Origin: Alphaproteobacteria bacterium
GTDB taxonomy: Bacteria > Pseudomonadota > Alphaproteobacteria > Bin95
DNA: 64,000 bases
Assembly (NCBI GenBank): GCA_965205265.1
Contig: CBDBGH010000003.1
Location: forward strand, 5,120,001-5,184,000
Direction: 5' to 3'
In this document: piece by piece, positions 25,960 to 28,043 of the stretch
Position numbering within the stretch: the first letter of the stretch is position 1
How the letters are laid out: every line of letters begins with the position of its first letter
Program-made: the position numbers and the translations under genes
Notes under the pieces: generated by a model
What the model saw: only the letters and a program-made list of their open reading frames with translations
Told to the model about the DNA's origin: nothing
Database searches by the model: none

Positions 25960-26609
25960 TGGCTGCTTGCCCCTTCAGGACAGCTACGGGACACGGACAG
26001 AATGTCAGCCCGTGCCGAGGCTTGACAATATAGGGCCAACGGTCCTATAATAGGCGAAACCGGCCAAAGGTGCAAGACAGCACCGGAGACTCCCTTTCCC
26101 ACAGTCGGCGCGTCCGGGAATCCCGGCCTCCGGGAACCTTGTAACGGGACGCTCGCGCTGCTTGGTGATGGCAAGGAGACAATGCATGCCGATGAGCCAC
26201 AGGAACCGGAATCGGCGGGCGAAGATGCGCTATCGTGTCCAGATGAACCGGGAACGCGGCGCGACAACGCCCGAGCTGGGGCGGATCAGCGGATACGGCC
26301 CCGCGTCCTGTTACCGCCAGCTGAACGACATGGAGACATTCGAAGGGGGTCTTGTATCCCGCCTGGAGTTGCGCGACGGGCGCAAGGTCAGGGTCTGGTA
26401 CGACCCCGACCATATTCCCGTCCTGCCGGGTGAGGCCGCGGTGGTGGCCCTCACGAGTGCGGGGGACCGGCTGCCGGCGGCCCGCTTCTTCGCCTATGAG
26501 CCGGCGATCGCATATGTGCGCAAGCAGTGCCGGGCGAACCATGCGCGTATCGGCGGCTACGAGATCTTCGAGGCAGCCGACGGTGTGCCATGGCCCGGAC
26601 GAAACGTTC

Positions 26610-27946
26610 GGGGCTTACAAAGGTAAGTTGACATTGCCGTGTATCGTATCCAGTTCGGCCGCATGAGCGAGGTCTTCACGCACCGTCAGGTGGTATTCCG
26701 GCTTCTGCCGGGCCGCCGGTCCGTTTGGCGGCGTCTGGAGCGGGTTCTGGAGGCGCAGCGGCAGTTGTACAACGCCGCCCTTCAGGAACGCTGCGACGCC
26801 TGGCGTCTGGCCGGGCGGTCGCTCTCCTATATCGACCAGGCGAAGAGCCTGACGGTGTGCCGCCGGGAGGACCCCGAGATGGCGGCCGTTCCGGTCGCCG
26901 TGCAGCGCGGGACGCTGAAGCGCCTGGACGAGGCGATGAAGGGCTTCTTCCGGCGGGTGAAGGCGGGCCAGAAGCCGGGTTTTCCCCGGTTCCGGTCCCG
27001 CCGGCGGTTCGACAGCCTCTCCTTCGTCTCGGGGGTGAGGCTGGAGGACCGGGCCCGGCCCGGCGCGGACTGCGGGTCCGGCGCGGCCTGCCTGCGCCTT
27101 CCGGGTTTCGGCCCGCTTGCGGTCCGCCGGCGGGGCGGCAACCCGCATGGGGATGGCGAGCCGGTCTCGGCGGTGCTGAAGCGCGAGGCCGGCAAGTGGT
27201 ACGCCGTGGTCTGCTACCGGGTCCCGGCGCCGGCGGTCCACGAGGATGACGACAGCGTCATCGGGGTGGACATGAACGCTGGCCAGGTGGCGGCGAGCGG
27301 TCCGGGGCCGGAAGCCCGCCTGTTCCATGCCCCGGATACGCGGCGGCTGGAGGCGAGGGCGAAGCGCCTTGCCCGGCGTCTGGCGCGCCAGAAGCGCGGC
27401 TCCGGGCGCCGGGAGCGCACCCGCGCCCGTCTGGCGAAGACGAGGCGGCGCCTTTCCGGGATGCGGTGCGACTGGCGCCACCATGTCTCGCGGACAGTCG
27501 CCGACGCCGCCCATACCGTCGCCGTCGAGGACCTCCGGGTCCGGAACATGACGCGCAGCGCCCGGGGCACGACAGAGGAGCCGGGCGCCCGGGTCCGGCA
27601 GAAGGCCGGGCTCAACCGCGTCATCCTGGCCACGGGATGGGCGGAACTGCGCTTCATGTTCGGCTACAAGGCGGGACGGCTGCTCGCGGTCGACCCGGCC
27701 CATACCAGCCGGACCTGCGCCGCCTGCGGCCATGTCGATGCCGGCTCGCGGCGTTCGCGGGCCGAATTCCAGTGCACGGCCTGCGGCCATGCGGACCATG
27801 CCGACGCGAATGCCGGCAGCAACATCCGGCGTCGGGGACTGGCGCTGCTGCACGGGGAGGGGCGTTCCGGCTTGCGGACCCCTGCGATCCGTGAAAACGC
27901 AGGGATGCTGGCGGCATGACGCCGTCAACTCATCTTTGTAAGGCCC
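26610..27946 (+). mobile_element. Non-autonomous TIR element (1337 bp) carrying only tnpB
   Basis: TIRs GGGGCTTACAAAGGTAAGTTGAC (26610-26632) and GTCAACTCATCTTTGTAAGGCCC (27924-27946), 20/23 match; 8-bp TSD AAACGTTC at 26602-26609 and 27947-27954. Confidence 0.85.
26639..27919 (+). CDS. tnpB: RNA-guided endonuclease TnpB (alternative ATG at 26663)
   Basis: LYNAAL, GFPRFR, RuvC GVDMN / VEDL / ADANAG.NI, Zn finger CAACG..CTACG. Confidence 0.93.
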   Translation: MYRIQFGRMSEVFTHRQVVFRLLPGRRSVWRRLERVLEAQRQLYNAALQERCDAWRLAGRSLSYIDQAKSLTVCRREDPEMAAVPVAVQRGTLKRLDEAMKGFFRRVKAGQKPGFPRFRSRRRFDSLSFVSGVRLEDRARPGADCGSGAACLRLPGFGPLAVRRRGGNPHGDGEPVSAVLKREAGKWYAVVCYRVPAPAVHEDDDSVIGVDMNAGQVAASGPGPEARLFHAPDTRRLEARAKRLARRLARQKRGSGRRERTRARLAKTRRRLSGMRCDWRHHVSRTVADAAHTVAVEDLRVRNMTRSARGTTEEPGARVRQKAGLNRVILATGWAELRFMFGYKAGRLLAVDPAHTSRTCAACGHVDAGSRRSRAEFQCTACGHADHADANAGSNIRRRGLALLHGEGRSGLRTPAIRENAGMLAA

Positions 27947-28043
27947 AAACGTTCTGACGGTCCGGCTCGACCCGGCGGACGGCAGCTGGCTGGATGGGGG
28001 ACCCTATGCCTGACCGCGAGCGGCAGACCGGGAGGACGGGACG

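Follow-up and report, generated by a model that had tools for sequence, protein, structure and literature searches.

A tnpB unit between IS1595-type terminal inverted repeats in an alphaproteobacterial genome, with a predicted omega RNA that includes the right repeat

Described settings of TnpB and the unit in the window

TnpB proteins encoded between terminal inverted repeats (TIRs) have been described by Altae-Tran et al., 2023 (PNAS, PMC10691335), whose main text sets out six DDE-associated branches, DDE-1 to DDE-6, with inverted terminal repeats, along with solo TnpBs that have the same ends and are probably mobilised in trans. IS630 is the only family named in that main text, where IS1595 is mentioned 0 times; a 2026 review (PMC13565253) lists ISL2, IS630 and IS1031 in the part that concerns such associations. 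The subject of the present analysis is a 1337-bp unit that carries tnpB between TIRs flanked by a target-site duplication (TSD), at positions 26610-27946 of the window, which is the whole 64,000-nucleotide stretch taken from contig CBDBGH010000003.1 of an alphaproteobacterial genome (assembly GCA_965205265.1). It resembles the DDE-1 to DDE-6 branches, as the main text presents them, in having a prokaryotic TnpB within TIRs, the 3' end of the gene near the transposon end, and solo copies probably moved in trans. It is unlike them in that a transposase gene is almost never found in or beside the present lineage (an IS1595 transposase gene lies within 3.5 kb at 1 of 80 related loci, and there outside the tnpB unit); a survey based on gene neighbourhoods could miss the lineage because the transposase gene so rarely adjoins tnpB. 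An earlier note on this DNA, made from the sequence alone, had proposed a candidate new class of RNA-guided mobile element, which goes too far, since TIR-bounded, DDE-associated TnpBs and their solo copies, probably moved in trans, are already in the main text of PMC10691335; the view that IS200/IS605 and IS607 elements are the sole vehicles of TnpB is out of date for the same reason.

A second parallel lies in the Fanzor1 and Fanzor2* elements, whose hosts are eukaryotes and eukaryotic viruses and for which the relevant parts of Yoon et al., 2023 (NAR, PMC10711439) report TIR bases within the scaffold of the guide RNA and an RNA that extends into the flank; in Fanzor1 the scaffold is reported there to take in the TSD, and the RNA to reach about 15 nt beyond it. 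In Fanzor as here, the captor of a TnpB-family nuclease is a cut-and-paste transposon that has TIRs and TSDs and is often non-autonomous (PMC10711439, PMC3627910, in the parts that bear on this). The present elements differ from Fanzor in being bacterial and in encoding a typical short TnpB of 426 aa, and from Fanzor1, so far as the parts of PMC10711439 on its guide RNA go, in that a conserved G, discussed below, suggests a guide beginning at the first base of the TSD. No bacterial report of a TIR-containing scaffold was found.

The protein family is that of the IS1341-group and ISDra2 TnpBs, in which the omega RNA likewise overlaps the 3' end of tnpB. Elements with tnpB only are described without TIRs and TSDs in the portion of Bao and Jurka, 2013 (PMC3627910) that treats them, and the same two features are absent from IS200/IS605 elements generally (PMC3627910, PMC13565253, in their passages on these elements). 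The unit in the window, unlike IS200/IS605 elements, has both TIRs and TSDs, shares only a single G among its left flanks, and resides in a genome where no Y1 TnpA was found. With the insertion sequences (ISs) of the IS1595 family, their miniature inverted-repeat transposable elements (MITEs) and their mobile insertion cassettes it has in common GG-starting TIRs, 8-bp TSDs and an IS1595 transposase available in trans; unlike the known IS1595 cassettes, it carries as cargo an RNA-guided nuclease whose predicted RNA is structurally tied to one TIR. Merlin is the eukaryotic relative of IS1595. A link between TnpB and IS1595 (looked for also under ISXO2, IS1016, ISPna2, Merlin and mobile insertion cassette) was not reported in the papers that were listed and judged by title and start of abstract, a search that did not extend to supplements or ISfinder.

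The reading that we consider probable as a whole is that of a non-autonomous IS1595 cassette whose sole cargo is an OMEGA module (tnpB plus omega RNA), moved in trans, with a TnpB guided by flank sequence. The kind of element is known; the IS1595-type, purely non-autonomous lineage, the predicted RNA embedded in the TIR and the G signal are new as far as we have seen. The DDE partnerships of TnpB are thereby extended to the family IS1595, and a bacterial parallel to Fanzor capture is provided.

The unit, its copies and its empty sites

The TIRs are 23 bp long with 3 mismatches (20/23), and a perfect 8-bp repeat stands on both sides of the unit (Table 1), as had been read directly from the sequence. 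The only open reading frame (ORF) in the unit with a family match is 26639-27919, tnpB; a 437-aa antisense ORF has no family match and there is no second family-matching ORF, so that no transposase lies inside, in agreement with the earlier reading. The TnpB product matches OrfB_IS605 (6.7e-14) and Cas12f1-like_TNB (9.6e-14) in Pfam and scores 182 bits with NCBIfam guided_TnpB (cut-off 100); with the specific IS200_TnpB model it scores 120.5, below the cut-off of 425. Its alignment with the ISDra2-type TnpB structures 8h1j and 8bf8 covers the whole protein (E 3e-25). The RuvC triad, which had been called intact, is D211, E297 and D389, and is invariant in 19/19 aligned homologues of 51-100% identity, as are the zinc-finger cysteines C360, C363, C379 and C382.

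The host genome (3 contigs, 5.70 Mb, 98.98% complete) carries seven full copies of 1337 bp and one partial copy of 518 bp. The full copies differ by 0-2 bases and their identity ends exactly at the TIR tips. Perfect 8-bp TSDs, all distinct, flank 6/7 of them: AAACGTTC, AAAGGAAA, AAAGCAGA, AAAGTTGT, TTCGAGGT and TTCTACGA. Three paralogous segments of about 2.1 kb and about 90% identity exist, and one of them contains the copy at C3:4697103-4698439. In both unoccupied paralogues the stretches that match its flanks have an overlap of exactly 8 bp, with the 8-mer present once, and these two segments are therefore empty sites with a single 8-mer; neither TIRs nor tnpB are present in them. The three segments do not differ at the insertion point or over at least the 26 nt that follow it. 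Anatomy and copy comparison together speak strongly for a cassette that is moved in trans with formation of 8-bp TSDs.

Further copies with the same ends and different TSDs, and empty alleles with a single 8-mer, were among the finds that the earlier note had named as support for its reading, and 6/7 copies and two paralogous sites now provide them; a third, an IS with a DDE transposase sharing the TIRs, is the element C3:1919671-1922510 treated below. Boundaries of the kind TTAC|...TCAA without a TSD, which it had named as evidence to the contrary, are not seen, inter-copy identity stopping at the TIR tips.

For the window insertion itself, no empty allele was found: the contigs of four sequencing runs that were compared with 25600-28900 contain no joint across the element, and the interrupted ORF has no homologue in 40 related genomes. 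For the copy at C3:1267771-1269107, a search of 16 same-genus genomes for an empty site met both flanks only in rearranged order. In the contigs of the four DNA runs over 25600-28900 the element appears as a multi-copy repeat with additional flanks. Word depth over the element in runs X2, X4 and X6 is about 3 to 100x that of the flanks, and at least one left flank in other runs is absent from the window genome; copy number and insertion sites therefore differ between strains or samples. Plasmid records contained only relatives of < 40% identity. The 518-bp partial copy is a left-end fragment, C3:4849555-4850072, 5.7 kb from the full copy C3:4855744-4857080; the flanks of these two do not pair as a simple inversion or deletion.

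The resident IS1595 family and the origin of the lineage

A search for Y1 TnpA (PF01797) gave 0 matches in this genome (a control search found the family in 6/14 genomes), and no IS607 serine recombinase gene is present in the element, no genome-wide search for IS607-type recombinases having been made; TIRs and TSDs such as those of the unit are likewise foreign to IS607 elements. There are 7 DDE_Tnp_IS1595 matches in the genome. A fuzzy search with both TIRs found a 2840-bp IS1595-family element at C3:1919671-1922510 (L009:1072-3911), with perfect TIRs GGGGATTACAAAGATGACTTGAC and an 8-bp TSD. The left TIR of the tnpB unit agrees with its TIR at 19/23 positions, as counted by eye, and the right at 20/23. 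It encodes a 332-aa transposase with a DDE_Tnp_IS1595 domain and a zinc ribbon (PF12762, 1.3e-41; PF12760; NCBIfam transpos_IS1595, NF033547, 204.7 bits). About 12 MITEs, 192-248 bp long, came out of the same search; their TIRs are related to these and they have 8-bp TSDs. In a genome of the same genus, the same TIR family bounds a 1509-bp cassette, present in 3 copies, in which a nucleotidyltransferase takes the place of tnpB (L036:1501-3009; TIRs GGGGCTTACAAAGATG(G/A)TTTGAC; a 404-aa NTP_transf_8 protein, 2.1e-61; no transposase); the 1509-bp unit is thus a mobile insertion cassette. A transposase-encoding IS, MITEs and cargo cassettes therefore all use this TIR family, and the tnpB unit is one such cassette. 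GG-starting TIRs and 8-bp TSDs are traits of the IS1595 family, and the resident IS1595 elements likewise have 8-bp TSDs. From the likeness of the TIRs and the length of the TSD we infer that the resident IS1595-family enzyme is the helper, and mobilisation in trans by an IS1595-type transposase appears very probable. The proposal of a DDE-type non-autonomous unit moved in trans, already made from the window alone, thus has strong support from the copies, their TSDs, the empty sites and the IS1595 TIR match.

The element at C3:1919671-1922510 also carries passenger ORFs, one of which encodes a putative lipoprotein of 277 aa whose match to TbpB_B_D is weak and below threshold (22 bits, cut-off 26). 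The MITE family is exemplified by C3:42319-42552, with about 11 further places. Several of the MITEs share the target TGTCATGTTTTG with the IS1595 element C3:1919671, which suggests a preferred or repeated target sequence.

A census with one genome per species, made by profile scan, gave 80 loci with 34-75% protein identity. Each was examined for inverted GG...CC ends with at least 14/20 matches together with a flanking 8-mer repeated at at least 7/8 positions; 6 loci lay at contig edges or had no candidate. This strict test for TIR and TSD was passed by 27/80 loci, as against 0/148 mismatched pairs of upstream and downstream sequence. Ends of the type GGG(G/A)NTTA are found at 26/27 passing loci, and 12 further loci have GGG-type ends with a weaker TIR or TSD, for a total of 38/80 with the same kind of ends. 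The hosts include Thalassobaculaceae, Paracoccaceae and other Alphaproteobacteria, Pseudomonadales and other Gammaproteobacteria, Rhodothermales, Bacteroidota and Dehalococcoidia; the same architecture thus recurs in other phyla, in relatives down to 34% identity. One genome has 68 matches to the TnpB profile and another has 32. PF12762 matches are present in 5/5 host genomes tested, compared with 1/14 control genomes. An automatic TIR search near IS1595 transposase genes gave no clear match to the TIRs of the tnpB elements in 4/5 other host genomes tested, and one host genome has a GGGGAATACTGATTTAACTA-type element. A metagenome scan returned mostly soil-type relatives of 30-40% identity, with 1/80 loci passing (63 scannable), and that one with a different TIR type.

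The remaining locus that passed in the census, L111 in an Acidimicrobiaceae genome, also has a different TIR type, GGTAGTGGCC. At L111:3388-4678, L156 and L268/L269, TnpBs of about 39% identity lie between TIRs of the type GGTAGTGGCC... or GGTAGTGCTG..., and L111 and L156 show the same 8-bp TSD length and the same flanking G. These ends may represent a second TIR family carrying TnpB.

A tree from a quick search was built on 70/80 loci (10 partial matches omitted), from which 19 with stops were dropped and to which the window protein was added, leaving 52 rows. One side of the tree has 35 rows, 31 of them TIR-bearing, and the other has 17, of which 16 are without such TIRs; the label "none" requires 6 changes on this tree as opposed to 16.1 in shuffles (0/500). 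On the TIR-less side, where 27 ORFs were chosen from 220 listed, mostly just upstream of tnpB, a Y1 TnpA gene is immediately upstream of tnpB at four loci (L100, L104, L106 and L112). The TIR-less elements of Actinomycetota have a common right end, ...GGAGTCAC, in 10/10 loci, and ATCAG precedes their left boundary in 7/7 aligned loci. These sisters are canonical IS605 elements. The simplest history would be that an IS605-type OMEGA module was captured between IS1595-type ends.

The predicted omega RNA, the flanking G and rival accounts

From 28 TIR-bounded elements the terminal 230 nt, together with 20 nt of flank, were aligned; the DNA of these 3' ends can be aligned well even between elements whose proteins are about 35% identical. 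RNAalifold predicts helices with many compensatory changes across the 28 sequences. When cells were counted against one fixed structure (28 pairs), 93.3% proved to be paired; shuffles give 79.0% (0/500 reach the observed value), and sliding the partners by 1-3 columns gives 29-48%. The score for covariation is 0.368, compared with 0.115. In the hairpin of columns 204-207/213-216, both sides have changed in 8-13 of 28 sequences per pair. In the helix of columns 239-243 with 274-278, the stretch that directly follows the conserved CCGTGAAA pairs with the inner half of the right TIR, and each of the 5 pairs varies on both sides. G-U pairs make up 21 of the 140 cells of this helix, and it is paired in 87% on the tnpB strand versus 72% on the other strand; this difference depends on G-U pairs and therefore points to an RNA of tnpB sense rather than to a DNA repeat. 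Covariation thus shows that the scaffold of the predicted omega RNA includes the right TIR. It also shows two selfish modules becoming physically interlocked.

In the window copy, the minimum-energy fold of 27826-27946 alone reproduces all of the helices P1 to P4 (Table 1); a single-sequence fold of 271 nt is uninformative (z -1.86), and a search of Rfam over 26400-28200 gave only a sub-threshold chance match. The guide would be encoded by the flank just past the TIR tip. It is placed there because the covariation of the scaffold reaches into the TIR and because a G resembling a target-adjacent motif (TAM) stands at the matching position of the empty site.

That G was found in a discovery set of 33 independent insertions oriented by tnpB (6 in this genome, 1 in a congener and 26 in other genomes), where it lies directly 5' of the left TSD copy at 31/33 sites, with the mirrored C after the right TSD at 9/33; no other flank position is conserved among the 33. 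A test set of 43 further loci from four multi-copy genomes gave 10 new strict sites, with the G at 8/10 and the mirrored C at 4/10. The combined figures are 39/43 for the G (binomial P 2.6e-16 at a flank G frequency of 0.31) and 13/43 for the mirrored C. Looser sites have the G at 9/12, and the TSD-less copy, the partial copy and a new flank from another run have it as well.

Since the TIR tip is an invariant CCC in the 28-element alignment, the same protospacer would be preceded by C when the site is occupied and by G when it is empty. Such a G-versus-C contrast is the discrimination that a homing nuclease would need, and the G stands where a TAM would be expected if the guide begins directly past the TIR tip. 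The ATCAG of the IS605-type sisters ends in G and its other four positions are without signal in the TIR clade; relaxation of the TAM to its last base would fit this. We give the guide and TAM part, taken by itself, slightly less than an even chance of being right.

On the model as a whole, then, a resident IS1595-family DDE transposase would act in trans on the non-autonomous cassette, recognising its 23-bp TIRs and making 8-bp staggered cuts in the target that give rise to the TSD. The TnpB lineage would derive from canonical Y1-TnpA IS605 elements and have been captured between IS1595-type ends; that its predicted omega-RNA scaffold has since co-evolved with the right TIR, the stretch after the CCGUGAAA motif pairing with the inner half of the TIR, is what the covariation shows. 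The transcript would leave the element through the TIR tip, making TSD plus flank the guide; TnpB may then cut the empty site, with G before the protospacer, and spare the occupied one, with the C of the TIR tip, and homologous recombination may restore the element at the cut site. If so, the conserved G would offer a simple account of how an OMEGA module in a TSD-making transposon tells self from non-self. A more tentative extension, about which we are on balance doubtful, is that the lineage, once captured by a DDE transposon without a fixed insertion motif, relaxed its TAM to a single G and fused its scaffold to the right TIR, with the guide beginning at the base that follows the TIR tip; a G-versus-C difference at one position alone would then separate the empty from the occupied site, and the outcome would be a compact and nearly TAM-free family; were this true, RNA-guided nucleases of 400-430 aa, present across several bacterial phyla, would be small natural enzymes with a very wide targeting range.

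Several observations weigh against the model or parts of it. The full copy C3:4855744-4857080 has no TSD, and the partial copy cannot be scored. The TIRs of the proposed helper are similar (19-20 of 23) and not identical, and its assignment comes from that likeness. In the tree, support for the two basal branches is low (48), and the rooting is arbitrary. The ends of the omega RNA and the position of the guide are read from sequence comparison, and a possible pseudoknot between the P1 loop and the TIR tip is weak, with one variable pair (176:283, which is CG 10, GC 2, UA 2 and UG 1) that is unpaired in 13/28 sequences. The two empty paralogues match the proposed protospacer of C3:4697103-4698439 over at least 26 nt, including the G, and are uncut and unfilled; this tells against the model because an efficient nuclease with such a guide should cut or convert them. 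The full copies in this genome are nearly identical, yet the G is present at 5/6 TSD-flanked copies, and a G already present in recent copies suggests choice at insertion rather than slow loss of G-less copies, a point that the model leaves unexplained. Stops occur in the tnpB match at 19/70 related loci, so that many copies have decayed. We know of no precedent for a one-base TAM. One review argues that a break is left by DDE excision in any case, so that an OMEGA module may add little (PMC13565253, in its discussion of this point).

The persisting empty sites, the G in recent copies and the stops are also what would be expected if an IS1595-type transposase moves the cassette with TnpB as a passive or decaying passenger, the G being a target preference of transposition or some other orientation-linked effect; other cargo is found between the same TIRs, so that cargo need not aid transposition. 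We regard this account as unlikely, though it is the strongest of the alternatives. A passive protein does not explain catalytic and zinc residues that are invariant in all 19 homologues, and RNA helices that covary across phyla indicate an RNA-protein module under selection. The asymmetry of the signal is a further difficulty, since a symmetric DDE complex should give the mirrored C as often and does so at only 13/43 sites. The G is kept, too, in elements whose TIR tips show no difference in the first 11-12 bases (for example L054, L074, L083 and L099), and the IS1595 elements and MITEs of this genome that share the TIR family and carry no TnpB have it at 8/24 ends (a small sample).

A different possibility is that the fixed outer part of the right TIR serves as the guide, in which case TnpB would target TIR-bearing DNA, whether at its own ends or in IS1595 elements and MITEs that compete with it. 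About 8-10 nt of the TIR 3' of the last well-supported helix are not firmly paired, and many related TIRs exist in the genome. A TnpB guide is about 16 nt long, and 8-10 fixed bases would be too few, the remainder of the guide still being flank. Such a guide also leaves the G 9 nt outside the left TIR without explanation, and the partial covariation of the tip with the P1 loop at pair 176:283 suggests that the tip is scaffold rather than guide. We therefore judge this improbable, well below the passenger account.

An ordinary IS200/IS605 element of the tnpB-only (IS1341) type, inserted at TTAC within an older palindromic repeat, is suggested by TTAC at 26615-26618 in the left TIR and TCAA at 27925-27928 in the right, which resemble typical IS608-type target and end motifs, but is refuted by the copy comparison and the empty paralogous sites and is extremely improbable: seven copies have the full 1337 bp including the TIRs at unrelated sites with different 8-bp duplications (6/7), the empty sites have neither TIRs nor tnpB, no Y1 TnpA was found in the genome, and the architecture recurs in other phyla.

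Table 1. Features of the tnpB unit, with the paralogous segments that contain one occupied and two empty sites (window positions unless marked C3)
Feature	Position	Strand	Remark
Left TSD copy, AAACGTTC	26602..26609	.	preceding base 26601 is G
Left 23-bp TIR, GGGGCTTACAAAGGTAAGTTGAC	26610..26632	+	identity among the 7 genome copies starts exactly at 26610
tnpB, 426 aa	26639..27919	+	GTG start at 26639; alternative start ATG at 26663
Minimum omega-RNA scaffold (predicted)	27829..27946	+	from covariation; overlaps the 3' end of tnpB and extends through the right TIR
P1	27829-27833 with 27841-27845	+	loop 27834-27840
P2	27851-27854 with 27890-27893	+	
P3	27866-27869 with 27875-27878	+	
P4	27900-27907 with 27931-27938	+	8 bp in the window copy; second strand inside the right TIR
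Possible pseudoknot	P1 loop with TIR tip 27941-27946	+	loop GGGAYU, tip RNUCCC
Right 23-bp TIR, reverse complement GGGCCTTACAAAGATGAGTTGAC	27924..27946	-	
Right TSD copy, AAACGTTC	27947..27954	.	would be the first 8 nt of the guide in the proposed model
Putative guide-encoding flank	27947..27966	+	about 16-20 nt past the TIR tip
Orphan ORF split by the insertion	26162..26626	+	frame would resume at 27955-28012 after precise excision
Paralogous segments	C3:3558363-3560427, C3:3440415-3442501, C3:4695638-4699067		one split by a tnpB element

The ORF that the insertion interrupts, 26162-26626, had been described as a gene that excision restores. The reading frame would indeed continue, for 23 further codons to a TGA at 28010-28012; that the ORF is a gene is not borne out, as it has no Pfam family and no homologue in the 40 related genomes. 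At 23838-25097 (+), 1.1 kb upstream of this orphan ORF, lies a gene for a 419-aa protein made up almost entirely of ankyrin repeats (Ank_2, 9.3e-66), and the neighbourhood of the insertion looks like mobile or accessory DNA.

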